Positions 4,680-25,169 of a stretch of 64,000 nt of DNA are shown in pieces. The stretch is from an uncultured Ignavibacterium sp. (GTDB lineage: Bacteria; Bacteroidota; Ignavibacteria; Ch128b): NCBI GenBank assembly GCA_964454895.1, contig CAYVTW010000011.1, positions 8,264-72,263 of the forward strand, in the 5' to 3' direction. The position numbers and the translations under genes are program-made. The notes beneath the pieces were generated by a model. It saw nothing but the letters and a program-made list of their open reading frames with translations, was not told where the DNA came from and did no database searches. Numbering within the stretch: position 1 is the first letter of the stretch; each line of letters starts with the position of its first letter.

Positions 4680-4760
4680 ACTAAAATAAGAAATTTTGCA
4701 TCGAGTATATAATAAAAACTTTAAGGATTACTCATTTTTCAGTATTTTTGGAGTAAGATT

Positions 4761-6542: not shown

Positions 6543-6550
6543 ACTCCCTT
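6527..6550. terminator. 9-bp-stem hairpin (AAGGGAGTT-aattta-AACTCCCTT) enclosing the convergent stop codons of rsmI (+) and the response regulator (-)
   Basis: Read directly from sequence; both stops (6540-6542 + ; 6539-6541 -) sit in the loop/stem; possible bidirectional terminator, though the flanking U-tracts are weak. Confidence 0.3.
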
Positions 6551-6919
6551 CAAACCTAAAGCATCCTTCACTTTTTCCATTAACGATTGGTAAGACACAG
6601 GTGATGTAACAAAATAATTTGCACCGAGTTGGAAGCAAAGCTCAACCACCTCTTTATCATTTAGTGCAGAAGCAACTATTACTTTTGTAATATTATTTTT
6701 TGAATTCGAGCGAATAGTTTTTAGTACTTCAAACCCGCTTACTTCTGGCATCATTAAATCTAAAATCACTAAATCGTATGTTTTTTCTGCAACCTTAGCT
6801 TTAGCTTCTTTCCCATTTGCTGCCGTATCTGCATCTAATCCCGCTCTTTTGAGATAATGCAAATGCATTTTTACTACTAAAGGATTGTCGTCTACAATAA
6901 GTATTTTATAATTATTCAT
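6539..6919 (-). CDS. Single-domain CheY-like response regulator receiver
   Basis: KILIVDDNPLVVKMH...DLVILDLMMPEVSGFEVLKTIR...KVIVASA: conserved DD / D(phospho) / T(S) / K receiver positions; no output domain (126 aa). Overlaps upstream gene by 4 nt (operonic). Confidence 0.8.
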   Translation of the reverse strand: MNNYKILIVDDNPLVVKMHLHYLKRAGLDADTAANGKEAKAKVAEKTYDLVILDLMMPEVSGFEVLKTIRSNSKNNITKVIVASALNDKEVVELCFQLGANYFVTSPVSYQSLMEKVKDALGLKGV

Positions 6920-8430: not shown

Positions 8431-10362
8431 TTAGATTGTTCTCAAGATTTCTGGTTTTTTGACAGTTGTAACTCCATGAGTGGTCTTTTCCCAATAGAAA
8501 GGTTTGAAGATTAGTTGCCACAGAGCTTTATAGGCACCAAGTGAATGTAATATCCAATAAAATGGATTCAACAGAGCGTAAACCACAAGGCCATATAGTC
8601 TTCTTCTAAATACAGCAAGCATGTTCATGTAAACAACCATAGCATTTCCGATCAAGAGATTAAACAAAGAAATGTAAAGTACCCATGCTGGGAAAATTTC
8701 TGAAATCCATTGAGGTCTAAATATTAACCAAGTAATGAATAGAATCCATAGTGGTAGGTTAATTAGGAATGTTGCTGGGGTTCCACCAATGAATAGGAAG
8801 AATGCAAACATTCCTCTGAATCCAATTTTCTTATATAACTCAATTGGATTTCTCATGTGAACAAGGAAGGTCTGCATATAACCCTTAACCCATCTGGAAC
8901 GTTGGCGGATCCAGCTTCTAACTTTCTTGTTCGCCTCTTCATAAGTTGTTGAATTTATTGTTCCAACTTTATAACCTTTAGCATAAGCACGTACACCCAA
9001 ATCAGCATCTTCAGTAACATTAAATGGATCCCAAGCATTTAATTCAACTAACTTTTCCTTTATAAAATGATTACTTGTTCCTCCTAATGGAATTGGTACA
9101 TTTAACCTATCCATACCTGGTAACATATAGTCGAACCAGTATGAATATTCAAGAGTGAACATTTTGGTAAGAAAGTTTTCATTTGCATTGAAATAATTTA
9201 ATTGAGCTTGAATACAAATAACATCTTCAGGGAATTTTTTGAATCCAACAATTGCTTTTTTTAGTTGATCGGGTTCGGGGATGTCCTCAGCATCATAAAT
9301 CGTAACCACTTCTCCTCGACAAAATACTAAGCCATAGTTACACGCTTTCGGTTTTGTCTTTGGCTGCATATTAGGGACAACGATACATTCAAATATAGAG
9401 GGAATATCAAGATTTCGAATTTTATTAATTGTCGCAAAATCATCTTCCTCAAGTAAAATTTTTATATCAAGCTTATCTTTCGGATAATCAAGTTGACTTA
9501 ATGCATAAATTAATGTTTCAATCACTTCAGGTTCTTTATAAACAGGGAGAAGAATACTATAGACCGGCAAATCTTCGTCATGAAGTTCTCGGATTTCTGC
9601 TTGAGTTACAGCTTCGTATAATTCGAATCTAGCACCGGCAAGAGTTAGTACAAATTTAAAGCCGATCGAGAATAAGTAGAGCAGATTTACTATTGCCATC
9701 AATATTGTGAAAGTAACAGCAGCATTAATTGAAACACCAATGATAAATGCTGTTCCGAGTAAAGCAATTAAAATTACCTGAGGTAGAGTGAATGTTTCTA
9801 TAGCTGAACTTCTTTCATCTTCAATGAAGAGGCTATAGACAGCACTTTCTGCTAATTCTTGACCAAATGCTTTATGGAGAACCCATTGAATATCAACATC
9901 TGTGGCATAAAAGATTTTCAGTGTTGATTGACTTTTTTCAAATATATAATCAATCGATTCTTCATCCAAAGGATTTATCATCGCGACATAAATATAGTCA
10001 CCATTTCTCTTAAATGGGCAAATAAGTTTATCCTGTAAGTATGTTTGATCAAAAGACATTAAAAGTTCATAATCGATCTCTTGAGTTAATAAATCAACTT
10101 TACCAACTGGAACAGCTTTTCTAATTACAGTTTCATAATCTTTTCTAGAAATAAAACCATAAAAAAGAAGTGCTTTAGGAAAATAAAGCTTTTCTCTTTC
10201 AGCAAATGCTTCTATTTCCTCAATTTTTTCTTGAGAGAAAACTCTTTCATTTATTAAAACTTTTTGCAACGCCTTTTTTTCAAGACTGGAACCAGAGCCC
10301 GAGCTTGAAAGCTCGTCCGGCACCAACATCTCGTCCAAAGGCGTCCACGCTGTATCCGACAT
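8431..10362 (-). CDS. Processive family-2 glycosyltransferase, cellulose-synthase (BcsA)-like, with N-terminal GspE_N/MshEN-type domain and no PilZ domain
   Basis: GT2 catalytic motifs in order: YDAEDIPEPDQL (DxD), NVTEDADLGVRA (TED), QRSRWVKG (QxxRW); 2 TM helices before and about 4 after the catalytic domain; C-terminus ends after the last TM helix (no PilZ RxxxR/DxSxxG). The N-terminal 190 aa align to the T2SS-E N-terminal domain pattern (ELLMSFDQTYLQDKLICPFKRNGDYIYVAMINPLDEESIDYIFEKSQSTLKIFYATDVDIQWVLHKAFG). Confidence 0.7.
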   Translation of the reverse strand: MSDTAWTPLDEMLVPDELSSSGSGSSLEKKALQKVLINERVFSQEKIEEIEAFAEREKLYFPKALLFYGFISRKDYETVIRKAVPVGKVDLLTQEIDYELLMSFDQTYLQDKLICPFKRNGDYIYVAMINPLDEESIDYIFEKSQSTLKIFYATDVDIQWVLHKAFGQELAESAVYSLFIEDERSSAIETFTLPQVILIALLGTAFIIGVSINAAVTFTILMAIVNLLYLFSIGFKFVLTLAGARFELYEAVTQAEIRELHDEDLPVYSILLPVYKEPEVIETLIYALSQLDYPKDKLDIKILLEEDDFATINKIRNLDIPSIFECIVVPNMQPKTKPKACNYGLVFCRGEVVTIYDAEDIPEPDQLKKAIVGFKKFPEDVICIQAQLNYFNANENFLTKMFTLEYSYWFDYMLPGMDRLNVPIPLGGTSNHFIKEKLVELNAWDPFNVTEDADLGVRAYAKGYKVGTINSTTYEEANKKVRSWIRQRSRWVKGYMQTFLVHMRNPIELYKKIGFRGMFAFFLFIGGTPATFLINLPLWILFITWLIFRPQWISEIFPAWVLYISLFNLLIGNAMVVYMNMLAVFRRRLYGLVVYALLNPFYWILHSLGAYKALWQLIFKPFYWEKTTHGVTTVKKPEILRTI

Positions 10363-11113
10363 ATCCTGACATGTGTTTGTTGAACTTATAAACTATTGCT
10401 GGTTCAATTTTCAATAATGAAAAATCAAGATTCCTTAAAAATATTTGACTAAAAGTCAAATTTTGATCTACTTTATCATGATTTCCTAAACCTAAAATCA
10501 AACTTGTTGAAAAAAGTATAGTAACTCTTCTCGTAATATTTAAGCCAATAGTTCCACCCGCTCTTAATTGGTCTGATGGTGCTTCGAATCTTTTTCTAAT
10601 ACCAAAATAAATTTCCCAGAATCCTTGAGACATAGTCCTCCCAAACGGAGAACCGACAAGTGCTGTAACTTGCAAATCTACTTGTCCATTACCGAGTGGT
10701 GGATCACCAGGATTAGTGTAAAATGGAAAGGCAACTAAAAATTGCAAAGCAAGACTTGGAATATCTCTGCTCAACTGAAATTGTAGCCCTACTTCTTGAT
10801 CTCCAAAACCTCCATTGGTAATCAATCCGATACTATCACGATAGCTTAACCCATAATAAAACATATTAGCTAAAAACATTATATCATCATCAAGGCCGTA
10901 CTCATAATAAAGATTTGTTTCATACTTTGTAAAAATTCCTCCAAGTGGTAGAAAAAATCTTTCTCCATTTCTGTTAAAAATTGTTTCAGAAGAGTAAAAC
11001 GATTGAACGCCTGATAGAAAATACCTGTTCGTTTTCTGTTGCCATACACTGGCTTGCAGATTAACTATTAAGAATACAACTAATAACAATGGGTTAAAAA
11101 AGAATTTAACCAC
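10280..11113 (-). CDS. Small outer-membrane beta-barrel protein (porin-like); start uncertain, probably non-ATG near 11113
   Basis: Track ORF 10280..11167 overlaps the upstream gene by about 60 nt; a signal-peptide-like segment KFFFNPLLLVVFLIVNLQA starts about residue 19; alternating amphipathic beta-strand pattern and C-terminal ...LGLWFQS; 3' end overlaps the GT2 start by about 80 nt. Confidence 0.4.
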   Translation of the reverse strand: MVKFFFNPLLLVVFLIVNLQASVWQQKTNRYFLSGVQSFYSSETIFNRNGERFFLPLGGIFTKYETNLYYEYGLDDDIMFLANMFYYGLSYRDSIGLITNGGFGDQEVGLQFQLSRDIPSLALQFLVAFPFYTNPGDPPLGNGQVDLQVTALVGSPFGRTMSQGFWEIYFGIRKRFEAPSDQLRAGGTIGLNITRRVTILFSTSLILGLGNHDKVDQNLTFSQIFLRNLDFSLLKIEPAIVYKFNKHMSGYVGYSVDAFGRDVGAGRAFKLGLWFQS

Positions 11114-13205
11114 GGGCAATTCTAACTCCTCTTCTACTTCTTGTGTAAAGCAAAATAGATAAACCAATGATTATAATCCAAGCAATAATAATCCAAATGT
11201 ATTTGAATTTATCCCATTGGATACGGACTGGGACTTTTTCAACAGGTTGCGTATATAAAATTTTGTCAAGCGCTTCCGCTGTTTTGAAGACGAGTGGATA
11301 ATCAGCCCCACTCATAATAGCGACATTTCCATCTATATTGCCAATCCTTTGGCTAAATTGATCTGCAAGTTTGACAAGATATCCTTTCCCTTCCTGACCA
11401 TAGCTCGACACAAGAAGTACATTATTGCTTGTTAATGTCTTAGTTAATTGCATAACCGCAATAGGCATGTTGTCAGAGTACTCGAACATAACTTGCCTAG
11501 TAGAACTACTTATTATTTTAAAACTCTGACTTAAATCCAGCGGAAGATACTCGAATGAGTCTTTATTGTATTTAACGTCAGAAGATACAACAATATAATT
11601 GTTATTTGAATTTTCCATAGTTGCAAACATCTCTGCAAATGACATTATCGGAGGAAAGTATTGTTCCTGTTTAGATATTTTTTGAATTGCGTTAATTATC
11701 GAGGCTGCAGCTTGAATATGTTCAGGAAGTGGATTCGATTGAAATACTACATACGTATTAGTTAAAAATGAATTCGGGAAGTTATTGAAGTTTGATGCCT
11801 TATCCACATTTTCGGCAGTTACATCAAAGTATGAGTAAGAATAAACCTCGCCGACAAATTGAGTTAAATCATCTCGACATTCGCCTTCATCTGGAAAGTA
11901 ATTAAATTCAATTTCAAAAGCGTTAATTTTTTTAAATAGATATTTTGGAAGTTGAACCACTAAACCGTTAATTGTTCCTGTGTGGTCAAGTCTTTTACTT
12001 TCTATCAGAACATCGTTCAGATAAATGTTAATAAACCCATTTTGAAAATTTTGCCTGACTGGAGTGTATTTAGAGTACATGTAAAAATCTACAGAACCGA
12101 TAAATTTAGCCAATTCAAGTTCAGATATAAACATTGTAATTCTTAAACTACCTATTCCTTTAGTCTGAATTCTTTCAAATCCTAATTCATCTAAAGTTAA
12201 TCTATATTTATTACCAACGAAAGATTTAATTTTGAAAGGCTCTATGTATCTTACCAACGAAAAATTTGAAAGTAATTTATGATACTGTTTCGGATTAACA
12301 ATTGCAGCAGCAGATTTTTGAACCGTTTTATCATTATCACCTGTGACATATAAAATCTTTGTCCCGTTGATAATCCTGACAAATAACAACCCATCTTCAG
12401 TGGTGAATTGTTGTTTAGCCTGGTTAATTATTTCTGCTCTCTCGATCGAATACGGAACTGGAAGACTTAATAATTCATCTGTTTTACCAACTGCAATAAC
12501 ATGAGTGAAATCATTTATTTTATTTGGATCAATTTCTTCGAAGCTTCCATAAAAAATATTTTCCGATTTTACTAAATCGAGTATCCTTGCATTTAACCAC
12601 ATCACATTTCCAGCTAGAACTGGATTCATTCTCTTTGGAGTTAGTATAAGGATACGATCAAATTTATCACTAAGAAAATCTGCAATAGTATTCTTCAATT
12701 TCTCTGAATAACTTAGAACCAACTTAGATTTTTGTCTAATGACAATCCAAAGGCCTTGTGTAGCTAAGTCTCTACATCTATCATCTGTTATATTCAAGTA
12801 GCCACCAACTTCAATTTTCAAAAGTGGTTTTTCACTTATCAACAAATCTTCAAGTTTCACATCATTCAGAGGAATACGAATTATTGGATTTGCAGAAATA
12901 TTTTTGAAAAATGTTGTATACACAGGAACATCATTGATAGAAATCTTTAGATTTGAATAATCACTTAAAATTGTCGAAAAACTTGCGTGTAATTCAAAAT
13001 AACTATTTTGAAAATCTATACCTCCTCTTGGAACTGGGAAAAATAATACTTGGGCAGGTGTAATCCCATAAAGAACTATATCCTTCTGATACCCAATATC
13101 TTTTAATGAAATCTCCTTAAAATTTTGTGCATGAGAAAAACTCAGAAATACTTGCAATAAGATAGAAATAAAAAGAAAAGAAATACGCCTACTATTTTTA
13201 TTCAT
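11106..13205 (-). CDS. bcsB: Cellulose synthase regulatory subunit BcsB homologue (periplasmic, C-terminal TM anchor)
   Basis: Signal peptide, about 640-aa periplasmic region and a single C-terminal TM helix (YIWIIIAWIIIIGLSILLY-TRSRRG), as in BcsB. The segment DDRCRDLATQGLWIVIRQKSKLVLSY matches the conserved BcsB block (E. coli QDVCENPASTTLWLDVGRSSGLDLTY) position by position. Confidence 0.6.
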   Translation of the reverse strand: MNKNSRRISFLFISILLQVFLSFSHAQNFKEISLKDIGYQKDIVLYGITPAQVLFFPVPRGGIDFQNSYFELHASFSTILSDYSNLKISINDVPVYTTFFKNISANPIIRIPLNDVKLEDLLISEKPLLKIEVGGYLNITDDRCRDLATQGLWIVIRQKSKLVLSYSEKLKNTIADFLSDKFDRILILTPKRMNPVLAGNVMWLNARILDLVKSENIFYGSFEEIDPNKINDFTHVIAVGKTDELLSLPVPYSIERAEIINQAKQQFTTEDGLLFVRIINGTKILYVTGDNDKTVQKSAAAIVNPKQYHKLLSNFSLVRYIEPFKIKSFVGNKYRLTLDELGFERIQTKGIGSLRITMFISELELAKFIGSVDFYMYSKYTPVRQNFQNGFINIYLNDVLIESKRLDHTGTINGLVVQLPKYLFKKINAFEIEFNYFPDEGECRDDLTQFVGEVYSYSYFDVTAENVDKASNFNNFPNSFLTNTYVVFQSNPLPEHIQAAASIINAIQKISKQEQYFPPIMSFAEMFATMENSNNNYIVVSSDVKYNKDSFEYLPLDLSQSFKIISSSTRQVMFEYSDNMPIAVMQLTKTLTSNNVLLVSSYGQEGKGYLVKLADQFSQRIGNIDGNVAIMSGADYPLVFKTAEALDKILYTQPVEKVPVRIQWDKFKYIWIIIAWIIIIGLSILLYTRSRRGVRIARG

Positions 13206-14678: not shown

Positions 14679-14827
14679 TTCTTACCTGTAATATTTTCTT
14701 ATTACTGTAATTTCCACAAATGAAATTTCTTTCATCTACAAATTTCAACAATTTTTTACAACTTTTTAGCAGGTATTATTATTGATTATAATCATGGTTT
14801 CCCAAAACTCTTCTGAACCTCCTTTTA

Positions 14828-14858
14828 GCCCGGTACTTCGATACCGGGCTCTTTTTTA
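14828..14858 (+). terminator. Strong Rho-independent terminator (GCCCGGTA-cttcga-TACCGGGC + TCTTTTTT) with no protein-coding gene upstream on this strand
   Basis: Perfect 8-bp GC-rich stem, 6-nt loop and U-tract read directly; the reverse orientation lacks a U-tract. All neighbouring genes to the left are on the minus strand. Confidence 0.55.
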
Positions 14859-15186
14859 AATATAATTTCTTTATGAATATCATAGCGGTTTGCTTCACAA
14901 CTAGTCCATTTGCTCCAAAAATCAACAAATAAGATTGAAGTTATAATTTCAAACAATAAATCTACTTTGAAATTAAAGTAAAGCTAAACTTCATATAATA
15001 AAATTTAAAGGTTCATTCATTTCAAAATAAAACACCTCTCAAATTGAAACACTCTAAAGAAATAAAACCATCAAAAACTGACAAAAATTTCAGCTTAATA
15101 AGGGGCATAACAATTGGCATTTAATAACTAATGAAAAAGTTTTCAAAAAAATCATTAGCAATAATTAAAAATTCATGGAGGTTAAC

Positions 15187-18100
15187 ATGAAACCTTTGAT
15201 ACAAAATCAATTCTGGCCAATAATCAAGTTAGTGGTGAGTTTTTTAATGATTATTGGCCTCATTTTCCCCACGAACTCAAATGCACAGAGTTCAAACTGT
15301 GACTTAAGTAAATTTGTCACATATACGCAAGGTGGTTGGGGAAACAAAGGAGGGAAAACTTGTAGTGGGGTTACGTTCATTACTGTTAAACAACTTGAAA
15401 CTGGAGCCGAGGTTTCAAAAGGTAATGGGACGGATAAACTTGGCTCAAATACAACTTTCACTTTCCCTAATGGTAAATCCGTAGTAATTCACACTTCTTG
15501 CTCACAACCTATCTATATAGGAATGACAGTTACAGCCGATGGATTTACTTACAAAATAACTCAACTCACAACAATTCCCTCCTCGACTACTTCTAATCCA
15601 GGAACAATCAGGGATTTATATTTTTCGGATGTATTCCCAACTGGTTTAGAAGTTGGAGGAATTTACAAACTAAAATTAACTTCTGCTTACGCAGTGGAGA
15701 AATTTTTACCCCAAGGTGGAAGTCCAAAAGCATTGGATAAAAACTACACTGACCCAACTAGCACGAAAGCAGGAGTTTTTGCGGGCCAAGTTGTGGCTCT
15801 TAAAATGAATGTTGCTTTTAATGATGCGGGTAAGATTGGTAGTGGTCCAGTTAAACTTGGTGATTTAATCGTTACAGCAGGACCTCTAGCAGGTAAGACA
15901 GTTTATCAAGTATTAGACTTAGCAAACATCGCACTTGGTGGTGGAACTACTCCATATACAATTTCGCAATTAAATGAAGCAGTAACCGATATTAACGAAA
16001 ATTTCAAAGATGGTAAGTACAATAAAGGTTTCTTAAGGTGCCCAGATTTACCGCAACTTGGTTCAATCTCCGGAACAGTTTTCTTCGATGTTAATGGTGA
16101 TGGAACCATGAATAACGATGAATTTGGGCTTCCAAATGTAAAAGTATACCTCTATTCAAATTCAATTTTAATCGATTCTACCTTTACAAACGAATCAGGA
16201 TTTTACAAATTTTCAAATCTGAATGCTGGAAATTACAGCGTAAAGGTTGTTGATCCATACATGTTGATATTAACAAATCCACCAAACCCAAAATCAGTAA
16301 TTCTTGCAAGTGGTGAAGCTAAGAACAACATTAATTTTGGTTACAAATGTGGTCAGCAACTTGCAAAAATTTCGGGTTATGTTTATGTGGATGCAAATCT
16401 TAATGGAATAAAAGATCCTGGCGAAGCACCACTAGCTAATGTAACAATCAAACTGTATGATCAAGATGGTGTAATAATAGGAACTACAACTACAAACTCG
16501 AGTGGATACTATGAATTCAGTGGATTAATTCCTGGAATTTATACTATTGAAGAAATAGACCCTGATCTATACAGAAGCACAACACCAAACTATATAAATC
16601 TTACACTATTAGCTGGACAACATTCACAGAATAATAATTTTGGTGATATACTTTCAGCTGATATTTGTGGGATGGTTTTCAACGATGAGAATGGTGATGG
16701 AGTTAGACAACCTTCTGAGTTAGGTATATCTGATGTTTTAATTGAATTATTTGAAATGCCATCGGGTAGTTTTGTCGCTTCAACAATAACTGGTGTCAAT
16801 GGTGAATATTGCTTTGGCTATTTAATTCCTGGAACTTACAAAATTAAACAGACCGATTTACCAGGATATATAAGCACAACTCCGAATGAAATAGTTAGAA
16901 CAGTAAATCAAGGCGATAAGAGTTATAACAACAATTTCGGTGATAAAATCGTAACGATTATGAAAGGTTCGATTGGTGATTTTGTGTGGAATGATTTGAA
17001 TAAAAATGGAATACAAGATCCAGGTGAACTCGGAATGCCAAATGTGATTGTTAAGCTTTACGATTGCAGCAACAACTGGATTAAAGAAATTACAACTAAC
17101 TCTAATGGATACTACAAATTTGATAGTTTAAATCCGGGTTCATATCAGATACTTATTCAACTACCATCTGGATATGCATTTTCACCAGCAAATCAGGGCT
17201 CTGATGATACAAAAGACTCAGACATAGATCCTTTAACCTGGAAATCACATTGCATTAGTTTACTAAGCGGACAAAATATTACTAATGTAGACGCTGGAAT
17301 ATATGAATTACCAACTTGCTCGATTGGTGACAGAGTATGGAATGATTTGAATAAAAACGGTATACAAGATGCTGGTGAGCCAGGTGTACCCAATATAAAA
17401 GTTAAACTTATCAGTTGTTCAACTTCTAATGTAGTTGCTATAACCACAACTAATTCTAGTGGAAATTATGTTTTCAATAATATTCCTTCGGGAAATTATC
17501 AAATTAAATTCTATGATTTACCGAATAATTGGGTATTTACTACAAAGGATGCTGGTTCAAATGACTTAATCGATTCCGATGCAGATCCATCAACAGGAAT
17601 GACCATTTGCTTCAATGTTGATCAATTCAATTGTGACAGCAATTCAACAAGGTGGGACGCTGGTATTTATTTCAATCCACCACAGCAATTTTGCTCAATT
17701 GGTGATAAAGTTTGGGAAGACTTAAATATAAATGGTATTCAGGATCCTAATGAGCCTGGAGTTGCGAATATAAAAGTGACTTTATTCGCTTGCTCTACAT
17801 CTACACCTATTGATGTAAAATATACAAATGCACAAGGTAATTATCTCTTTTCAAATGTTCCTGCTGGAAATTATTATATCAAATTTGAAAATATACCAAC
17901 CGGTTATGCTTTCACATTCAAAGATGTTGGATCTAATGATTTACTTGATTCAGATGTAGATCCATTAACGGGTAAGACAGCATGTTTCCCAGTTGATCCC
18001 AATGATTGCGAAAATAATTCTGTAAAATGGGATGCTGGAATTTATATCTGCCCACCAACATTTGAAGTCAGTGGTATGGTATTTAATGATTTGAATGGTA

Positions 18101-20607
18101 ATGGAATAAAAGACTTTGGCGAAGTGGGTATTCCAAATGTCTTAATAAAGTTGTGGGGAACATCAGCAAACTTGATTGCGACTACTCTAACCAATACTCA
18201 AGGTCAATTCGTATTCACTGGTGTTTTGCCTGGTCAATATCATGTTCAAGAAATAGATCCTCCAGGATATATTAGCACAACACCAAATTCCTTCTTCATC
18301 ACTGTTTCTTCTTCAAATGTAACGAATATTCTATTTGGAGATAAGGTAAAACCAACACCTGAACCTTGTGATTTAACAAAGTATGTAACTTACACACAAG
18401 ATCAATGGTGTCTTGATCCTGCAAAATCATTACTACTAAATAAATTCAATCAGATTTTCCCAAGTGGTTTCAAAATTGGTGATGCTGGTTCTCCTTACAC
18501 CATTACATTTACAAACGGAACAGCATTAAAGAATTTCTTACCACAAATTGGTGCTCCGGGTCAGTTAAATATGAATTATGTTAATCCAGCTACAACACCA
18601 GCAGGTCAATTTGCTGGAAATGTTGCTGCGTTGGCGCTAAATATTGCATTCAACGATTCAGGATTACTTGGTTCAACATCAACCACAAAACTTGGTAACC
18701 TTGTTGTTGCATCAGGGCCAATGAAAGATTACAAAGTTTATGAAGTTCTCTTACTTGCAAACAAAGCTCTTGGTGGTGGCACAACCCCATTCTCCATCCA
18801 GACTCTTAACGATGTTGTGTCAAAAATTAACTACAACTTCGCTTGCAATTGCAATTATGGTTATTTGATATGCCCACCTCTACCAGACTCTTGCGGTGGT
18901 GGATTTGATGCTGGTGTTGAATCAAATGCAAATCTTGCAGACTTATTATTGCAAAGATTAACAAAGATTGAATATGGAATGACAACAAAGATACTCCGTA
19001 ATCCAAAAGCTCCATTTTCAGCAAGTCTTGGATTGCGAGATATTTTCCCACCAGTTGGTCCAATGGGTTCAAGACCAGTTGAATCAACTCCATTTGATAT
19101 TCTTGGAATTTCCAATGCAACATCAGCCTATGCTATTGATTACAATCTCTCACTAGCAAAAGGTGATGTAAGAATTGCGAGCGTCTTCGCAACTACTACA
19201 AATCCACCTTACATTTATGAACACACAAAGGCTATCTGCGATAGATTGATAAATGCAGAACTTGATTACATCTCTCAAGTGAAAATAGATAATCATTACT
19301 TCTTCGCATCAGTTCTTGATAAAGCTGAAGAGGGAGTGAAAGACTATACAATTCACTTCAGCATTTACGAAGTTGGAAACAAATTCCTTGTAGATTCTAG
19401 ATGGTTGATCGAAGAGTATGAAGTTCCAGCCAATGCATCTAATGTTTATAATTTCCAAGTATGGGGAAGCAACTTCCAGAATGCGATTTATCTATCTGAA
19501 TTGATACTTGAACAATTCAAGTCAAAAGGTAAAGTCGAGTATCTCAATAAGAGCGCCGTCCCAACTTCACTTGTTTATGTGAAGAAAGGAAAATACAACC
19601 ACAACGGAACCATAGAATTGATCGTTAACAACGAACAGATAATATCTGATAATATCACGATCAAATTCAAAGCACGAGAAGTCCAAGGTGGTGCAAAGAA
19701 TGAATTCGTAAGAACATTCCAGATTAATCCAGGACTGAATACCCTGCTTATCAATACTGGAGTTCTTTCTGATGCCAATGTTTATATCAGCACAACAAAT
19801 GGCTTCAAAGATGAAATCTTTGTTAGCGGTGGTGCATATACATATTTGAGTGGCAGTGCTTCAAAAGTCAATGAATTCATAACAAATACTTTCTCTACAC
19901 CTTCATTGAATTCATTGCCAAAAGAATCTATGGTTTTGAGTGGTGGCGCAAGAATCAAAGGACAACTCGGTGATTGGATGACATTGTTTAGATCATTGAC
20001 AGCTAACACTGCACCATATGATTTAAGCGATTATGATGCAATTAGATTCACAATTCGTGGTTATGGAAATGTTCAAGTAAGATTTGAACAAGATGGTATA
20101 AAGAATTTTGATTATCATTCCAAGAAGGTCACTCTCGACGGTTCCGAGCAAGAATTGACTATACCATTCAGTGAATTCAAACAAATGAATGGAAACAAAC
20201 CTCTCGATCCAAGACTTATCAGAAAGCTATCAGTGATGATAAGTAAGAATGAGAATCCAACTCTAAACAATGTGGATGTTGAGATTAAGAACATAGTATT
20301 CTTGAAGAAACACAATGATGGTTCTACAAATACCGAGATACCAAAAGAATTCAAACTTGCTCAGAACTATCCTAACCCATTCAATCCAAGCACCTTAATT
20401 GAATACTCGGTTGCAAAACCAGAACGAATTACGATCAAAGTTTACAATGTTTTAGGAAAAGAAATTGCAACATTAGTTGATGAAGTAAAAGAGCCGGGCG
20501 TCTACTCAGTTAGATTTGATGCAAGTCAATTAAGCTCTGGAATTTACTTCTACAAGTTGCAAAGTGACTCATACAATGCAGTACGCAAGATGATTTTGCA
20601 GAAGTAA
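15187..20607 (+). CDS. Giant T9SS-sorted cell-surface adhesin-like protein (duplicated N-terminal module, 7 SdrD-B/Cna-B repeats, CBM-like domain, C-terminal Por sorting domain)
   Basis: GGAGG RBS at 15177-15181 favours ATG 15187 (MKPLIQNQ... signal peptide) over track start 15175. Seven approximately 120-aa repeats carry the SdrD B-type signature (GDxVWxDLNxNGIQDxGExGxPNxxVKL...TTNSxGxYxFxxxPxGxYxI). The module CDLSKFVTYTQGGW...GGTTPYTISQLNEAV recurs as CDLTKYVTYTQDQW...GGTTPFSIQTLNDVV. The C-terminus LAQNYPNPFNPSTLIEYSV...GIYFYKLQ is a T9SS C-terminal domain. Confidence 0.8.
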   Translation: MKPLIQNQFWPIIKLVVSFLMIIGLIFPTNSNAQSSNCDLSKFVTYTQGGWGNKGGKTCSGVTFITVKQLETGAEVSKGNGTDKLGSNTTFTFPNGKSVVIHTSCSQPIYIGMTVTADGFTYKITQLTTIPSSTTSNPGTIRDLYFSDVFPTGLEVGGIYKLKLTSAYAVEKFLPQGGSPKALDKNYTDPTSTKAGVFAGQVVALKMNVAFNDAGKIGSGPVKLGDLIVTAGPLAGKTVYQVLDLANIALGGGTTPYTISQLNEAVTDINENFKDGKYNKGFLRCPDLPQLGSISGTVFFDVNGDGTMNNDEFGLPNVKVYLYSNSILIDSTFTNESGFYKFSNLNAGNYSVKVVDPYMLILTNPPNPKSVILASGEAKNNINFGYKCGQQLAKISGYVYVDANLNGIKDPGEAPLANVTIKLYDQDGVIIGTTTTNSSGYYEFSGLIPGIYTIEEIDPDLYRSTTPNYINLTLLAGQHSQNNNFGDILSADICGMVFNDENGDGVRQPSELGISDVLIELFEMPSGSFVASTITGVNGEYCFGYLIPGTYKIKQTDLPGYISTTPNEIVRTVNQGDKSYNNNFGDKIVTIMKGSIGDFVWNDLNKNGIQDPGELGMPNVIVKLYDCSNNWIKEITTNSNGYYKFDSLNPGSYQILIQLPSGYAFSPANQGSDDTKDSDIDPLTWKSHCISLLSGQNITNVDAGIYELPTCSIGDRVWNDLNKNGIQDAGEPGVPNIKVKLISCSTSNVVAITTTNSSGNYVFNNIPSGNYQIKFYDLPNNWVFTTKDAGSNDLIDSDADPSTGMTICFNVDQFNCDSNSTRWDAGIYFNPPQQFCSIGDKVWEDLNINGIQDPNEPGVANIKVTLFACSTSTPIDVKYTNAQGNYLFSNVPAGNYYIKFENIPTGYAFTFKDVGSNDLLDSDVDPLTGKTACFPVDPNDCENNSVKWDAGIYICPPTFEVSGMVFNDLNGNGIKDFGEVGIPNVLIKLWGTSANLIATTLTNTQGQFVFTGVLPGQYHVQEIDPPGYISTTPNSFFITVSSSNVTNILFGDKVKPTPEPCDLTKYVTYTQDQWCLDPAKSLLLNKFNQIFPSGFKIGDAGSPYTITFTNGTALKNFLPQIGAPGQLNMNYVNPATTPAGQFAGNVAALALNIAFNDSGLLGSTSTTKLGNLVVASGPMKDYKVYEVLLLANKALGGGTTPFSIQTLNDVVSKINYNFACNCNYGYLICPPLPDSCGGGFDAGVESNANLADLLLQRLTKIEYGMTTKILRNPKAPFSASLGLRDIFPPVGPMGSRPVESTPFDILGISNATSAYAIDYNLSLAKGDVRIASVFATTTNPPYIYEHTKAICDRLINAELDYISQVKIDNHYFFASVLDKAEEGVKDYTIHFSIYEVGNKFLVDSRWLIEEYEVPANASNVYNFQVWGSNFQNAIYLSELILEQFKSKGKVEYLNKSAVPTSLVYVKKGKYNHNGTIELIVNNEQIISDNITIKFKAREVQGGAKNEFVRTFQINPGLNTLLINTGVLSDANVYISTTNGFKDEIFVSGGAYTYLSGSASKVNEFITNTFSTPSLNSLPKESMVLSGGARIKGQLGDWMTLFRSLTANTAPYDLSDYDAIRFTIRGYGNVQVRFEQDGIKNFDYHSKKVTLDGSEQELTIPFSEFKQMNGNKPLDPRLIRKLSVMISKNENPTLNNVDVEIKNIVFLKKHNDGSTNTEIPKEFKLAQNYPNPFNPSTLIEYSVAKPERITIKVYNVLGKEIATLVDEVKEPGVYSVRFDASQLSSGIYFYKLQSDSYNAVRKMILQK
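16060..18330 (+). repeat. Seven tandem approximately 360-nt intragenic repeats (SdrD-B-like domains) within the giant adhesin gene
   Basis: Nucleotide-level similarity visible e.g. 16968-17075 vs 17319-17425 vs 17693-17800 (...ggtgaYaRagtWtggRaWgaYttRaatAWaaaYggWatacaRgat...). Confidence 0.7.
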
Positions 20608-20634
20608 TTCTGCATTAACGCTCCCTTCCTGCTG

Positions 20635-20668
20635 AAAACCCGGACAGTTGGTCCGGGTTTTCTTTTTT
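20635..20668. terminator. Bidirectional intrinsic terminator between convergent genes (AAAACCCGGAC-agttg-GTCCGGGTTTT + CTTTTTT)
   Basis: 11-bp stem with A/U-rich arms giving U-tracts on both strands; 28 nt after the adhesin stop (20605-20607) and 46 nt after the minus-strand lipoprotein stop (20714-20716). Confidence 0.6.
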
Positions 20669-20713
20669 AAACTAATATAAGATCGTCTTATTGAACCGTT
20701 TTCAAATAATTAC

Positions 20714-21219: not shown

Positions 21220-24036
21220 CTATTTTATAACAACCATTTTCTTTTCTTGAGTGAAGTATTCAGTCAATAATCTATAAAAATAAACTCCACTTGTTAGATT
21301 TGATGCATCAAAAGATTTTAAATAAGAGCCAGCTTTCTGAAAATCATCAACAAGCGTAATGACTTCCTGACCGAGTGCATTGTATACTTTTAATTGTACT
21401 TTTGTATCAATAGGTAAATCATAACTTATATAAGTTATGGGATTAAACGGATTAGGATAATTTTGATATAATTCAAACTTTGACGGTAAGATTTCATTTG
21501 AATATTCAACTGATGTTAATAAACCAGGTTCAGGTAGTGGTAATTTTTTAGTGGTAAAAATTCTAAACTCACCTGGTTGAAGATTTATAGTCATCTGTGT
21601 GTTTGTTACATTTAAGCTATCACCATAAAAATAATTATACCACCAACCTGTATTTTGAAAGCTTGGAGTAACTGTCCTTTGAATCACATCGAAGTTTCCA
21701 ACAATTGCAACATTCATAGAGTCATGATTTAACCATAATCGTTTGACAGCACCACTAAAATCTGTTGTGAAGTTAGTTGTCCTATTAAAAACAGCATAAC
21801 TTTTTCTTAAATCGATCAATGTTGCAAATGTTTTATATAATTTATTTCTGTTCACATCTAAAAAATATCCCCATCTAATTGGCTTAGGTCCAGTTCTTCC
21901 ATTGTAATCGATCGAATAATCATACCCAAGTTCGCCAAATTGCCAGATCATTTTTGGACCAGGGACAGTGAAGAAAAATGCAGCAGCAAGTTTAATTCTT
22001 TCTAGAGCAGTTGCAAGATTTTTAATGTTATAATTACCACTCGAATTACCATACATTAAATTCTTATACATCAATCTTTCTTCATCATGGCTTTCCATAT
22101 ACCCAATCAAATGCGGTTTTGAAAATCCACGAGCTTTGTAAGAAATACGTGTGAAATCTGATTTTCCTCCATCGTGCCAGCCCATTGTTGCCTCATTGTA
22201 GTTGTAATTTAAATTACCCCAGCTAAGCATTCCATAATTGGTTAAAACTTGTTCTTCAGAGTCAACAGCAAAATGTTCTAAAATTACATAAGCAGTTGAG
22301 TCATATTTCCAAATCGAATCAGCATAAGCTTTGAGAATGTTAATCCTCGATTGGTCATATTGTCCCCATAGACCTACATCGTTACCAGAGTTTGTTTGAG
22401 TAAATCCTTTAGATAAGTCAAATCTGAATCCATCAACTTTATACTCTTGCAGATAAAACTTCAAAGCACGAGCGACCAATTCTTTTGTTGCTTGACTTTC
22501 GTGATTAAAATCGTAACCAACATTATAAGGATGACGAGCAACAGGATTAAAATATGGACTATTTGCAGCAGGTCTCTGATTTGTTTCATCCCACCACATC
22601 CGAACAAGTGAAGACTGACCAAAATTGTGATTGAATACAACATCAAAAATCACAGCAAAACCCATTTGGTGAGCTTTATCAATGAATGCTTTTAGATCAT
22701 TCTTTGTGCCGTAATATTTATCCATTGCAAAATAAAAAGTTGTGTTATATCCCCAGCTTTCATTTCCTTCAAATTCATTTACTGGCATTAATTCAATGGC
22801 ATTAACACCAAGTTTCTTTAAGTAATTTAATGTATCAGCTAATGTCTTATAATTAGGAGTAGTTAAAAAGTCTCTTACGAGCAACTCATAAACTACAAGT
22901 TGAGTTTTATCAGGCCTTTGAAAGTTTGTAACCTGCCAATTGTACTTTGACTCATTAATTTGAAATACTGAAACTAAGTGAGTTGTTTTTCCAAATGGAT
23001 AAGGTTTAAGATTTGGATAGACTGTCGAAGGAATATATTGATCATTCCATGGATCAAGAACTTTTTCTGTAAAAGGATCTGCAACTTTTAGCCTACCATC
23101 GATATAGTACTGATAGCCATACTCTATATTCGGATTAAGGTTATTTATTTGAATCCAATAACGATTTCCATCAGGAGTACGCTTCATGTAATAACTAGGA
23201 TCAACCTCCCAATTTGTAAAATCTCCAATCACATAAACATAATTTTTATGAGGTGCATATAAACATAAAATCACGCTCGTACTATCAACAACATTTACTC
23301 CTTCCTGAATACCTAGTGGCAATGGTGCTGTTTGAACTGGTGCTCTAACAATAAAATAATTCGAGTCGACTTTTATATTGCCCTGTGCATCTGTGGCAAC
23401 AGCGCGCAAATTGTATCGTCCATAATTAAAAAACATCATTGTTCGCGAAAGATAAAATGTATCCGTTTGAGCAATTAATGAATCGTTTAGATATAGCTTT
23501 AAATTGACTGAACCAGCAGATGCTGCCGTAATTGTAAAATTCTGAGCTGTATTTATAATCGTCCCCTTTTCGATTGGATTTAAGAAACGAACATTCAATC
23601 CTGGTTTATATAGTGGAAGGAAAATATCACTACCATCTACATCTCTCCCAACTTTACTTCCATCTGCGTTTCTGAAAACAAATGCTAATCTCAAGATATC
23701 TTCCGAATCAGGTACACCATAATATTGTGGGATGTTTATCGTAATTCTCCAAATGTTATTTCCGATGTATTGAATTGGTGGTTGATTGACCGGAGAACCC
23801 CAAGTAGTTTTAACGTATCGCCAATCATTTGGATGCCGACTTAGATTTGTAATCACACCAGTGTGAACATAAATTGGAAAAACTCCAATTAGTGCTCCGT
23901 TCCCTTTTGTTACATCATAATCAATTGTGATTACATCATTTCGAGTTGCAAAGTAAGGTGTCCATTGAAGAACCTGAGAATTCAAAATTCCAGATGTAAT
24001 GAGAATGAGTAAAGCTAAAATTTTTAATGACTTCAT
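21220..24036 (-). CDS. GH13-family alpha-amylase/pullulanase-type glycoside hydrolase with E-set/CBM48-like N-terminal domains and T9SS C-terminal sorting domain
   Basis: GH13 conserved regions I-IV present: FDVVFNHN, VDGFRFDLSKGF, YVILEHFA, YMESHDEER; N-terminal beta-sandwich domain (VYVIGDFTNWEVDP...); C-terminus LYQNYPNPFNPITYISYDL...GVYFYRL is a T9SS CTD; N-terminal signal peptide. Confidence 0.8.
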   Translation of the reverse strand: MKSLKILALLILITSGILNSQVLQWTPYFATRNDVITIDYDVTKGNGALIGVFPIYVHTGVITNLSRHPNDWRYVKTTWGSPVNQPPIQYIGNNIWRITINIPQYYGVPDSEDILRLAFVFRNADGSKVGRDVDGSDIFLPLYKPGLNVRFLNPIEKGTIINTAQNFTITAASAGSVNLKLYLNDSLIAQTDTFYLSRTMMFFNYGRYNLRAVATDAQGNIKVDSNYFIVRAPVQTAPLPLGIQEGVNVVDSTSVILCLYAPHKNYVYVIGDFTNWEVDPSYYMKRTPDGNRYWIQINNLNPNIEYGYQYYIDGRLKVADPFTEKVLDPWNDQYIPSTVYPNLKPYPFGKTTHLVSVFQINESKYNWQVTNFQRPDKTQLVVYELLVRDFLTTPNYKTLADTLNYLKKLGVNAIELMPVNEFEGNESWGYNTTFYFAMDKYYGTKNDLKAFIDKAHQMGFAVIFDVVFNHNFGQSSLVRMWWDETNQRPAANSPYFNPVARHPYNVGYDFNHESQATKELVARALKFYLQEYKVDGFRFDLSKGFTQTNSGNDVGLWGQYDQSRINILKAYADSIWKYDSTAYVILEHFAVDSEEQVLTNYGMLSWGNLNYNYNEATMGWHDGGKSDFTRISYKARGFSKPHLIGYMESHDEERLMYKNLMYGNSSGNYNIKNLATALERIKLAAAFFFTVPGPKMIWQFGELGYDYSIDYNGRTGPKPIRWGYFLDVNRNKLYKTFATLIDLRKSYAVFNRTTNFTTDFSGAVKRLWLNHDSMNVAIVGNFDVIQRTVTPSFQNTGWWYNYFYGDSLNVTNTQMTINLQPGEFRIFTTKKLPLPEPGLLTSVEYSNEILPSKFELYQNYPNPFNPITYISYDLPIDTKVQLKVYNALGQEVITLVDDFQKAGSYLKSFDASNLTSGVYFYRLLTEYFTQEKKMVVIK

Positions 24037-25169
24037 TTTAAGTACTCCATCTTTTTTGACTCATTATAATCACCAATTTGAATTGAGTATATGTATGTCC
24101 CACTACTCAAACGATAATAATATCCGTCTAACTCAATTTGATGATAACCATCAGAGTTTATTTGTTGAGTTAGCTTTGTAATTTCTCTACCAAGAGTATC
24201 AGTAACTCTGAATGTTAATGTTTTACCAACAAAATCTTTAGGAATAAAATATCTTATTTGAGTTGAGTAATTAAATGGATTAGGATAATTCTGATATAAT
24301 ATAAACTTTGTTGGTATTAAACTTAATTCTTCAACCAAGGTTTGTGGAAGAGCTGGACTTCCTGCATTAATCCAGGCAGTGTAAATCAAAGAACCAAGTC
24401 GATTACTCGCTTTTTGAAAAAGATATTTTGTGAATGTTGACGAGTTGTTCCACAAGTGTAAATAGTAAGTTTCGCTGCTTGTATTCCCAGCAATTGATTT
24501 CGCAATACTGTCTGCTCTTAAAACATCATCAAGATATGAATAAGATTCAAATAAATAATTGAAAATAAACTCAAGAGGATTTTGAATATAAGTGACAGGT
24601 TCTGTTGAGAAAGTGAATGAGCTTTGATAACGATTAATCATTTGCGTTTCGTATCTCGAATGAATTCCTTTTTGACCTGTGAATTGACCATCGTAATTTC
24701 TAGTGATATGCAATGGTTGATGCCCATCAGCTACATAGTGACCTAAATCAGCTGCAATTAATTTTGCTCTATCCCAATCTCTTCTTTGTAATGCTGAAGT
24801 TAAAGAATCAAGCGTATTCTTAGTTGCCCAAGGAAGTATTCCTTGCTGCCAGACATAATCCCAACCATATCTCGCAATTAAAGTATCAATTGAATAAGGG
24901 AAATTACCCGTAAAAAATTCTTGATAATTATCTATATCGATATAATGCTTATTTCCTTCAGTTGGATCAGAACCTTTTCTATAATCAGCATCTGATGCGT
25001 GTTGCGCTAAAAATTCTGCCCAAAGATGATAACCAACCATCTCAGGTGGAAAATGTTTGGTAGAATTTCGATTAATTAAACTGTGCCCAACGCTTCCCCA
25101 ACCAAATATTTCTCTTGCAACTACAAATAAAAATATTATTGAAAAAGAAATAGAAATCAATCTCTTCAT
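24033..25169 (-). CDS. Secreted S1/P1-family zinc nuclease with T9SS C-terminal domain
   Basis: Signal peptide then WGSVGHSLI (N-terminal Trp/His zinc ligands of S1/P1 nucleases), ...DADYRKGSDPTEGNKHYIDID, HQPLH; C-terminus LYQNYPNPFNYSTQIRYF...GTYIYSIQ (T9SS CTD). Overlaps GH13 gene by 4 nt. Confidence 0.7.
   Translation of the reverse strand: MKRLISISFSIIFLFVVAREIFGWGSVGHSLINRNSTKHFPPEMVGYHLWAEFLAQHASDADYRKGSDPTEGNKHYIDIDNYQEFFTGNFPYSIDTLIARYGWDYVWQQGILPWATKNTLDSLTSALQRRDWDRAKLIAADLGHYVADGHQPLHITRNYDGQFTGQKGIHSRYETQMINRYQSSFTFSTEPVTYIQNPLEFIFNYLFESYSYLDDVLRADSIAKSIAGNTSSETYYLHLWNNSSTFTKYLFQKASNRLGSLIYTAWINAGSPALPQTLVEELSLIPTKFILYQNYPNPFNYSTQIRYFIPKDFVGKTLTFRVTDTLGREITKLTQQINSDGYHQIELDGYYYRLSSGTYIYSIQIGDYNESKKMEYLK

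Follow-up and report, generated by a model that had tools for sequence, protein, structure and literature searches.

A duplicated, uncatalogued TQGGWG module brackets the SdrD_B stalk of a predicted T9SS-sorted surface protein from an Ignavibacteria lineage

The window analyzed here (a 64-kb stretch of DNA) carries a monocistronic gene whose product is, in our favored reading, a Sec-exported and T9SS-sorted fibrillar adhesin-like surface protein of an Ignavibacteria lineage, in which a module here called TQGGWG probably serves as a recognition or adhesion domain at the tip of a stalk. The module occurs twice in the protein, on either side of seven SdrD_B repeats, and belongs to a large family found in many bacterial phyla. 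Large modular surface proteins of the T9SS kind are familiar, and the protein as a whole, being one of them, implies no new system.

Results

The gene is present in the ORF list as an uninterrupted single ORF (15175..20607, +) of 1810 aa. It is a real, free-standing gene (15175/15187..20607, +) that has a Shine-Dalgarno site and a terminator of its own. The ORF has its first in-frame ATG at 15175; direct reading of the sequence and the ORF list (Shine-Dalgarno and start region, 15177..15189, +) showed a GGAGG at 15177-15181 followed after 5 nt by the ATG at 15187, which is therefore the likelier start codon and was also the choice of the original prediction. An intrinsic-terminator-like hairpin followed by a T run (20634..20672, +), with a 12-bp stem containing 7 G-C pairs, is located 27 nt past the stop codon. 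As read from the translation, residues 1-37 (15175..15285, +) resemble a signal peptide with a K-containing n-region, the hydrophobic stretch IIKLVVSFLMIIGLIF and the c-region PTNSNA; cleavage is predicted before QSSN (SNA/Q), which would leave Gln38 as the mature N-terminus. At the opposite end, residues 1732-1810 plus the stop codon (20368..20607, +) encode a T9SS type A C-terminal sorting domain, which matched Por_Secre_tail PF18962 at residues 1732-1807 with 44.1 bits (cut-off 27) and TIGR04183 with 46.7 bits (cut-off 23), in agreement with the original prediction of a T9SS cargo. A similar sorting domain ends three other ORFs of the window, and the same tail was found in relatives from Ignavibacteria MAGs. 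In P. gingivalis, such domains are removed by cleavage and the cargo becomes surface-linked (PMC4560394, PMC8545088). All five peptides quoted in the original prediction were present in the translation, i.e., CDLSKFVTYTQGGW at residues 42-55, GGTTPYTISQLNEAV at 256-270, CDLTKYVTYTQDQW at 1065-1078, GGTTPFSIQTLNDVV at 1201-1215 and DAIRFTIRGYGNVQVRFEQDG at 1621-1641, and the adhesin-like modular build that it proposed is borne out by the domain layout.

Copy 1 of the TQGGWG module (residues 42-293; 15298..16053, +; family HMM i-E 4e-70) comprises the N-terminal motif CDLSKFVTYTQGGW (15298-15339, +), a nested beta-rich insert of ~92 aa (residues 56-147; 15340-15615, +) and a helical core (residues 148-293; 15616-16053, +). 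Copy 2 (residues 1065-1237; 18367..18885, +; family HMM i-E 2e-58) is compact, lacks the insert and carries the degenerate motif TQDQWC without GNNPG; Q and W of the T-Q-G-G-W motif are kept in both copies, and the Gly residues are missing from copy 2. When the two segments were compared with each other by BLAST (a self-BLAST of the whole protein gave the identity match alone), 72 of 148 residues were identical (49%, E 1e-43) in addition to the 14-aa N-terminal motif, so that the internal duplication claimed earlier is far beyond chance. The module itself had been taken to be ~260 aa long, and this did not hold, as the unit common to both copies is ~175 aa. Copy 1 spans residues 42-293 only because the insert is nested after its TQGGWG motif, and the stretch following copy 2 up to about residue 1330 is part of another conserved region; the proposed limits of 40-300 and 1060-1330 had mixed three different units. 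The AF2 model of copy 1 gave a pLDDT above 90 for the helical core and of 56-82 for the insert, which is weakly similar to DUF7467 (23 bits against a cut-off of 27) and which, when used alone in a homologue search, returned one near-identical fragment and nothing else. A relative, P0165, shows the duplication to be old. Its copies match the copy in the same position at 66 and 62% but the other copy at 47-48%, and both have thus been kept since before P0165 split off. Flanking cysteines co-occur among module domains (both present in 104, neither in 29 and one in 25; Fisher p 8e-14), and the N- and C-terminal ends of the module are probably tied by a disulfide in the window protein, the candidate pairs being Cys42 with Cys289 in copy 1 and Cys1065 with Cys1233 in copy 2.

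The family profile, defined in this analysis, has 177 positions and was built from 50 diverse members; no public accession for the family was found. Approximately 3,750 cluster representatives at 50% identity are spread over many bacterial phyla, and the module is also present in at least one giant virus. Neither the module segments nor the 50 diverse members gave a match in Pfam-A, NCBIfam or PDB sequences, consistent with the original statement that the module could not be named, and no common characterized domain, the outcome proposed as refuting that statement, was found in Pfam-A, NCBIfam or the PDB. Searches of the PDB with the module by sequence and by profile returned no match, as did Foldseek of the module model against the PDB, and a literature search for the motif string found nothing. 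Invariant or near-invariant columns are mostly G, A, L, N, Q, T, V, F and P, with one W; among the conserved columns of the family there is no charged residue, no cysteine and no aromatic or charged residue that would hint at a ligand, a pattern that would suit a purely structural function no less than a binding function. The domains co-occurring with the module are of extracellular or adhesin type only (SprB, He_PIG, PKD, cadherin, F5/8-C and TSP3), and the module is, in our reading, a ~175-aa, mostly helical extracellular domain.

In Ignavibacteria, Bacteroidota, Acidobacteriota and others, the module was found again and again on both sides of a repeat stalk in secreted proteins, and the order signal peptide, module, repeats, module, sorting domain is seen with stalks of SprB, HYR or SdrD_B type. 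The two-copy arrangement, present in many other proteins too, is thus no accident. In many members, the module is the last domain before the C-terminus or lies within a small lipoprotein, and hence the tip of a stalk is not its sole setting. At least 61 of the 140 newly retrieved top representatives contain two or more copies and 79 contain a single copy, a multi-copy frequency that is biased because the top-match list ranks by summed score and so enriches multi-copy proteins. The genomic context of three small family members revealed no common neighbors and no functional hint.

Between the two copies lie seven SdrD_B (B-repeat) domains (16063..18342, +), namely R1 (16063-16365), R2 (16366-16659), R3 (16660-16965), R4 (16966-17316), R5 (17317-17691), R6 (17692-18063) and R7 (18064-18342), all on the + strand. 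Pfam PF17210 matched the seven stretches with 557 bits (cut-off 29.7, E 1.6e-170), confirming the number first reported. Every repeat opens with D-x-N-x-[DN]-G-x-x-[DNQ]-x-x-E, and R4-R6 additionally contain D-S-D-x-D-P-x-T. The earlier description of the repeats as similar at the nucleotide level was not upheld, since their codon-threaded DNA identity is 46-66% and the longest exact common word is 20 nt; protein identity between repeats is 31-61%, and the best DNA pair shows 77% over 90 nt. Tandem Repeats Finder detected no tandem array in the DNA of the gene. That result, together with a repeat search and the pairwise identities, ruled out recombination-prone repeats, a claim that is not supported because the repeat DNA is too diverged. 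Length variability, which the same description had mentioned, does hold for copy number, as relatives carry 6, 7 and 12 repeats. A 4.3-kb deletion allele with the junction 14801|19119 may also exist. The B repeats of SdrD bind Ca2+ and act as a spacer projecting the ligand-binding region (PMC5902956), and by analogy the stalk of the window protein is probably stiffened by Ca2+. Against the more distant orthologue L004, conservation was 89% in the tip insert and 84% in the tip core, no less than in the stalk repeats (63-86%). The cultured relatives Melioribacter roseus and Stygiobacter electus carry positional homologues.

Copy 2 is followed by a conserved C-terminal base cassette (residues 1238-1725, ~490 aa; 18886..20349, +), as delimited by homologues, AF2 and Foldseek. 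The second module copy therefore adjoins the base and not a tip, which is a counterpoint to the tip reading. The cassette consists of an alpha/beta domain with an invariant H1350-x-K-x-x-C1355-D-R (residues ~1248-1452; 18916-19530, +), a beta-sandwich (residues ~1453-1572; 19531-19890, +) and a CBM11/CIA30-like jelly roll (residues ~1587-1712; 19933-20310, +), and its AF2 model has a pLDDT of 84.6. Homologues are 24-41% identical over ~97% of the region; across them E, R, D, H, K, C, D, R, S and W are invariant in the alpha/beta domain, and their N-termini are TED (thioester), DUF4114, DUF11 or DUF6923. A CBM-like domain ahead of the sorting domain had been predicted, and Foldseek indeed superposed the jelly roll on the CBM11 of C. 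thermocellum Lic26A-Cel5E (1v0a/6r31; TM 0.64 by target, E 1.3e-6, probability 1.0, rmsd 4.0-4.8 A, 17-18% identity), with a further match to NDUFAF1/CIA30 (7zkq_A, TM 0.54). The domain differs from CBM11 and CIA30 in that its sequence scores at or below the family thresholds: CIA30 matched the isolated segment weakly (27.3 bits against a cut-off of 24), no CBM_11 PF03425 match above threshold was obtained (E 0.022, 15.3 bits against a cut-off of 27), and the jelly-roll profile found PDB 1v0a with E 0.09. Unlike CBM11, the domain is not attached to a glycoside hydrolase. Polysaccharide binding, one of two roles given as likely in the original prediction, may apply to the protein.

Comparison with known surface proteins

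The window protein resembles the staphylococcal MSCRAMM SdrD in its tandem SdrD_B array with EF-hand-like Asp/Asn loops, and in both proteins the B-repeat array would act as a spacer that separates the distal head at the N-terminus from the surface anchor at the C-terminus (PMC5902956). The N2-N3 IgG-like A region of SdrD (dock-lock-latch) is absent, neither a Ser-Asp repeat region nor LPXTG was found in the translation, and NCBIfam MSCRAMM_SdrD (NF012181) scored 291 bits against a cut-off of 2500, with the B-repeat part alone aligning. In their place, the window protein has a T9SS sorting-domain anchor, a TQGGWG head and a second module copy past the stalk. Like the SprB-type giant T9SS adhesins of Bacteroidota, it has a long repeat stalk and, at the C-terminus, a T9SS sorting domain, along with a putative Sec signal, and many TQGGWG-module proteins have stalks of SprB repeats; it differs in having a type A sorting domain and an SdrD_B stalk, and a link to motility is not indicated. 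SprB itself is not known to carry a TQGGWG module.

The base also links the window protein to Ignavibacteria surface proteins that carry a TED (PF08341), such as P0126. These come from the same lineage, are likewise predicted T9SS cargo and have the whole ~480-aa base cassette and the sorting domain in common with the window protein (34-41% identity over ~97% of the region). Their head, however, is a TED with YCVD and IQFAVW motifs, whereas in the window protein no match to PF08341 was obtained at E up to 1. Taking as the mark of a TED its conserved Cys (Y/F-C-V/I-D/E/N) and Gln (Q-x-A-V/I-W), the conserved Gln of the window protein belongs to another motif (TQGGW) within a helical fold, and has no conserved family cysteine as partner. 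A thioester reading of C-x10-T-Q-x-x-W as a TED-like Cys/Gln pair was accordingly rejected: the Cys is not conserved across the family, the flanking Cys covaries with the C-terminal Cys instead, and the module is helical in the AF2 model and does not match PF08341. A literature search on Ignavibacteria, thioester domains and T9SS found nothing relevant.

Discussion

Since T9SS cargo is held by its C-terminus, we read the domain order from the cell outward. The ~490-aa base cassette with its alpha/beta domain, beta-sandwich and CBM11/CIA30-like jelly roll would lie nearest the cell, followed by module copy 2 and then by the stalk of seven SdrD_B domains, probably Ca2+-stiffened; copy 1 with its nested beta-rich insert would form the distal tip. 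We take the module to serve in recognition or adhesion and not as an enzyme; its tip copy would display a lineage-specific insert to the environment at a reach set by the stalk. A point against this reading is that the chemistry of T9SS anchoring is known from Bacteroidota and not from Ignavibacteria.

A rather unlikely alternative is that binding resides in the CBM11/CIA30-like jelly roll, making this a polysaccharide-binding protein in which the TQGGWG modules are structural end-caps stabilizing the stalk. The fold matches to CBM11 and also CBM29 agree with it, as do the T9SS alpha-amylase and the BcsB/GT2 exopolysaccharide operon among the neighboring genes, but the jelly roll would be nearest the cell, a poor site for substrate capture, and CIA30 has the same fold yet binds no carbohydrate, while the CBM_11 sequence score is sub-threshold. 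End-caps would account for the predominance of small or hydrophobic residues among the conserved ones, whose Asn and Gln look buried, and for modules that bracket repeat arrays of three unrelated kinds. Against this, the module also stands alone in small lipoproteins or at C-termini without repeat arrays, where there is no stalk to cap, and the tip insert is the best-conserved segment between orthologues.

We regard as improbable that the modules bind each other, within or between molecules, to form loops, head-to-tail fibers or cell-cell and matrix cross-links, as in a homophilic aggregation or biofilm-matrix protein. The retention of both copies over long divergence would suit such docking, as would the frequency of two or more copies among the top representatives, although that frequency is biased by summed-score ranking and single-copy members are numerous. 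Also nearby is an operon for an exopolysaccharide synthase, with a c-di-GMP-type MshEN domain, but it is on the other strand with an rRNA/tRNA methyltransferase gene in between; moreover, when all loci were searched by tblastn with the BcsB and GT2 proteins of the window, these turned up in the two orthologous loci only, so that a link between module and exopolysaccharide genes is not supported. Very unlikely, in our estimate, is a surface-displayed hydrolase or transferase, with either the module or the cassette alpha/beta domain as the enzyme. The invariant residues of the latter, including its His-x-Lys-x-x-Cys-Asp-Arg, and the transglutaminases among the Foldseek matches would point that way, but the transglutaminase alignments, at TM values no higher than 0.2, probably stem from beta-sandwich domains, searches of Pfam, NCBIfam and PDB sequences yielded no enzyme family, and the module has no conserved catalytic-type residues.

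Returning to the adhesion reading, the two copies may amount to the bivalent binding unit that the original prediction saw in the duplication. A bolder and tentative possibility, which we hold to be less than even, is that TQGGWG represents a new extracellular fold and family, an unrecognized adhesion or recognition head, whose pairing at the ends of a stalk serves a specific mechanism undescribed for known adhesins, e.g., two-point attachment or module-module docking. Because the cassette bears known or putative adhesive heads in relatives, e.g., a Cys-Gln thioester domain, the N-terminal part would be the exchangeable 'business end'. A cassette with interchangeable heads suggests a plug-and-play design of T9SS surface fibers outside the well-studied Bacteroidota. 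The useful outcome is the ~175-aa helical domain itself, which is confidently modeled and has thousands of relatives, yet is covered neither by Pfam or NCBIfam models nor by a structural relative, whether solved or recognizable from sequence. Defining it would name thousands of 'hypothetical' surface proteins and provide a target for structure and ligand studies in cultured Melioribacter or Stygiobacter.

Results

The gene occupies a single ORF (15175-20607, + strand) with a product of 1810 aa, and residues are numbered here from the ATG at 15175. The second ATG (15187), which the original prediction had taken as the start, is the likelier one because a GGAGG Shine-Dalgarno site stands 5 nt upstream of it (ATGGAGGTTAACATG). 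A G+C-rich 12-bp hairpin with a T run lies 27 nt past the stop codon. The gene upstream is divergent, and the target gene, with its own Shine-Dalgarno site and terminator-like hairpin, therefore looks monocistronic. Another terminator-like hairpin (14827-14850, + strand; 9-bp stem followed by a T run) is found in the AT-rich intergenic region of ~500 nt upstream of the gene, where no + strand ORF ends, just beyond the deletion breakpoint of the contig L083 described below. Judged by eye, the N-terminus has the look of a Sec signal peptide, with SNA as its last residues before QSSN. The predicted signal-peptidase cleavage would leave Gln38 (15286-15288) as N-terminal residue, as in the ‘Q-rule’ described for Bacteroidetes and reported not to be general across the FCB group (PMC5837995).

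All peptide strings quoted in the original prediction were found at the expected residues, and the duplication of an N-terminal module that it described was borne out by segment-against-segment BLAST, in which 72 of 148 positions were identical between the copies (49%, E 1e-43); besides this match, both copies have the 14-residue motif CDL[ST]K[FY]VTYTQxxW. The predicted module length of ~260 aa at both places did not hold, as the unit common to both copies is ~175 aa. Copy 1 (residues 42-293) is long due to an insert of ~92 residues (56-147) directly after the TQGGWG motif, copy 2 spans residues 1065-1237, and the stretch past residue 1237 is part of a different conserved unit, the base cassette. 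The module had been called unnameable, and indeed neither copy nor any of 50 diverse relatives matched Pfam-A (2025) or NCBIfam (2026), with the sole exception of a sub-threshold DUF7467 match to the copy 1 insert. PDB sequences searched by phmmer and by profile gave no match to the module, nor did Foldseek against PDB structures (best E 0.23, TM ≤0.18).

The family is nevertheless large: a word-indexed search returned 335 module relatives, and a profile search run exhaustively over 1.84 billion cluster representatives returned 3,750 at E ≤ 1e-3, of which 1,494 pass E ≤ 1e-30. A species-representative genome scan placed members in Ignavibacteria (Melioribacter, Stygiobacter, Ignavibacterium), Bacteroidota, Acidobacteriota, Gemmatimonadota, Acidimicrobiia and others, where some MAG labels, archaeal included, may reflect binning errors. 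Conserved columns comprise the Q and W of T-x-T-Q-G-G-W-G, GNNPG, FLPQGG, AGxFAGQxxALxLN, ANxxLGG and LNxxxxxINxNF; the alignment columns contain no conserved charged residue and no conserved cysteine. The AlphaFold2 model from a 50-sequence alignment has a mean pLDDT of 86, with a core (pLDDT >90) of about five helices and short hairpins, and a beta-rich copy 1 insert (pLDDT 56-82). The sole significant Foldseek match in BFVD was A0A6N1NZ86 from Tupanvirus deep ocean, 606 aa long and labelled ‘Ig family protein’ (E 3e-13, TM 0.60 by query, 26% identity). It looks like a relative of the module, and the match suggests that one member of this bacterial extracellular domain family is encoded by a giant virus.

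Two cysteine positions flank the module, one immediately ahead of the motif and one directly behind the last helix; both are present in 104 domains, neither in 29 and one in 25 (Fisher p 8e-14, for sequences that are not phylogenetically independent), and the pair is complete in each copy of the window protein (C42/C289 and C1065/C1233). This co-occurrence across the family argues for a predicted disulfide joining the two ends of the module. A Cys-Gln thioester, first suggested by the motif, is opposed by the pairing of these cysteines with each other.

Many of the best-ranked representatives have two to five modules per protein, under a ranking by summed score that favours multi-copy proteins. 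A recurrent layout is signal peptide, module, repeat array (SprB, HYR-like or SdrD_B), module and Por_Secre_tail; in other family members the module stands at the very C-terminus of long proteins or makes up the second half of ~350-aa lipoproteins. In one relative, P0165, the whole layout of the window protein is present: module, twelve SdrD_B repeats, module, cassette and sorting domain. Position for position, the modules of the two proteins are 66% and 62% identical, against only 47-48% when each is compared with the other copy; the duplication is therefore older than the split of the two proteins, and both copies have been maintained.

Between the modules lie seven SdrD_B domains (residues ~297-1056; Pfam, E 1.6e-170), and the CarboxypepD_reg, SpaA, NOMO and other beta-sandwich families listed overlap these same repeats. 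D-x-N-x-[DN]-G-x-x-[DNQ]-x-x-E opens 7/7 repeats, and R4-R6 are longer (117-125 aa) with an additional D-S-D-x-D-P-x-T motif. The B repeats of Staphylococcus aureus SdrD bind Ca2+ via EF-type motifs and form a spacer projecting the ligand-binding region (PMC5902956); by analogy, we infer that the stalk may be stiffened by Ca2+. Unlike the Sdr family, the target protein has no A region, SD repeat region or LPXTG signal, and it scores 291 bits against the MSCRAMM_SdrD cut-off of 2500 (NCBIfam), so it is not a family member.

The repeats had been expected to be similar at the DNA level, recombination-prone and variable in number. For this allele the first two parts are not supported: identities across all pairs are 31-61% for protein and 46-66% for DNA, the longest shared exact word is 20 nt, the best DNA pair reaches 77% over 90 nt, and Tandem Repeats Finder reported no array. 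No two repeats are more alike than R5 and R6 (17317-18063; 61% aa, 66% nt). Repeat number does vary among relatives: the orthologue L003 (Ignavibacteria MAG SKW60; ~79% nt identity, 84-97% aa identity by region) has seven, the more distant P0165 twelve, and the orthologue L004 (Ignavibacteriales MAG) six, the counterpart of R5 being absent. L004 has a single repeat in place of R5 and R6, implying that one unit was gained or lost in a lineage-specific manner.

A type A T9SS sorting domain (residues 1732-1807) scores above the curated cut-offs in both Pfam and NCBIfam. The preceding base cassette (residues 1238-1725) has full-length relatives (24-41% identity) in T9SS proteins of ~850 aa, whose N-terminal parts are a thioester domain (PF08341; YCVD and IQFAVW motifs), DUF4114, DUF11 or DUF6923. 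On an Ignavibacteria-type contig (ENA GROS21 scaffolds L001/L002), two tandem genes (3253-5799 and 6001-8550) each encode a T9SS protein of ~850 aa in which the same cassette and sorting domain are coupled to a Cys-Gln thioester domain (PF08341). The T9SS cargo of Ignavibacteria-type genomes thus appears to include thioester adhesins, a class known chiefly from Gram-positive organisms. The AlphaFold2 model of the cassette (pLDDT 84.6) consists of an alpha/beta domain, a beta-sandwich and a terminal jelly roll; the last superposes on CBM11 (1v0a/6r31, TM 0.64 by target) and CIA30/NDUFAF1, in agreement with its weak Pfam matches, so that the CBM-like domain of the original prediction was right at fold level. 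The alpha/beta domain (18916-19530, residues ~1248-1452) had no Pfam, NCBIfam or PDB-sequence match; E, R, D, N, T, Y, H1350, K1352, C1355, D1356, R1357, S and W, including the motif H1350-x-K-x-x-C1355-D-R, are invariant across relatives only 24-41% identical, and could form an active site or a docking site.

The neighbourhood includes an exopolysaccharide-synthase-like cluster (8431-13205, - strand), with a family 2 glycosyltransferase bearing an N-terminal MshEN domain (c-di-GMP-binding type), an overlapping 295-aa ORF and a BcsB-like protein; an rRNA/tRNA U5-methyltransferase gene stands between this cluster and the adhesin gene. Three more ORFs (21220-24036 and 24033-25169, - strand; 32226-34454, + strand) have a T9SS-type C-terminal domain like that of the target, one of them a 938-aa alpha-amylase-family protein with a DUF4961-like N-terminus. 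Judged by these domains, the window is dense in putative T9SS cargo genes.

Discussion

T9SS cargo loses its sorting domain and becomes fixed to the surface through the C-terminus so formed (PMC4560394, PMC8545088, PMC5445135). From this established biology and the SdrD analogy together, the target protein is most simply read as a cell-anchored fibre, in which the base cassette and module copy 2 would lie near the cell, the SdrD_B stalk would set the reach, and module copy 1 with its insert would form the distal tip. The alternative heads on cassette relatives, covalent-adhesion thioester domains among them, fit this reading, and the N-terminal part would therefore be an exchangeable functional end. 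Against L004, the more distant of the two orthologues, the tip insert is 89% and the core 84% identical and the stalk repeats are 63-86%; a tip at least as conserved as the stalk also fits a fibre. Within such a fibre, the module would bind a ligand; being without conserved charged or aromatic residues, it may, with lower probability, instead be a structural cap or a self-association domain. Catalysis is the least probable function for the module; the alpha/beta domain of the cassette may, with low probability, be an enzyme.

The Logan contig L083 (run SRR8369165, 7541 nt) matches the window at 91-93% identity on either side of a junction that joins 14801 to 19119. Positions 14802-19118, with the promoter region and the first ~1315 codons, are missing, and the remainder is a 453-aa remnant lacking the signal peptide. 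The flanks have no word of ≥10 nt in common, which makes k-mer collapse unlikely. L083, a single contig, is a possible natural deletion allele, and it may instead be an assembly chimera; a true deletion would mean that a close relative has kept no more than a remnant without signal peptide, and that the gene is dispensable.

The prediction that this is an adhesin-like T9SS cargo, equipped with a CBM-like domain and with a duplicated module that has no name, is thus partly supported, the observation being largely real and its boundaries and DNA-similarity claim being corrected. The protein is of an ordinary kind, and some of its building blocks are uncatalogued: the module represents a large domain family, modelled with confidence and so far undescribed, and the base cassette is conserved and also occurs in thioester-domain proteins. 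The main value lies in domain annotation and in a lead toward structural and ligand studies.
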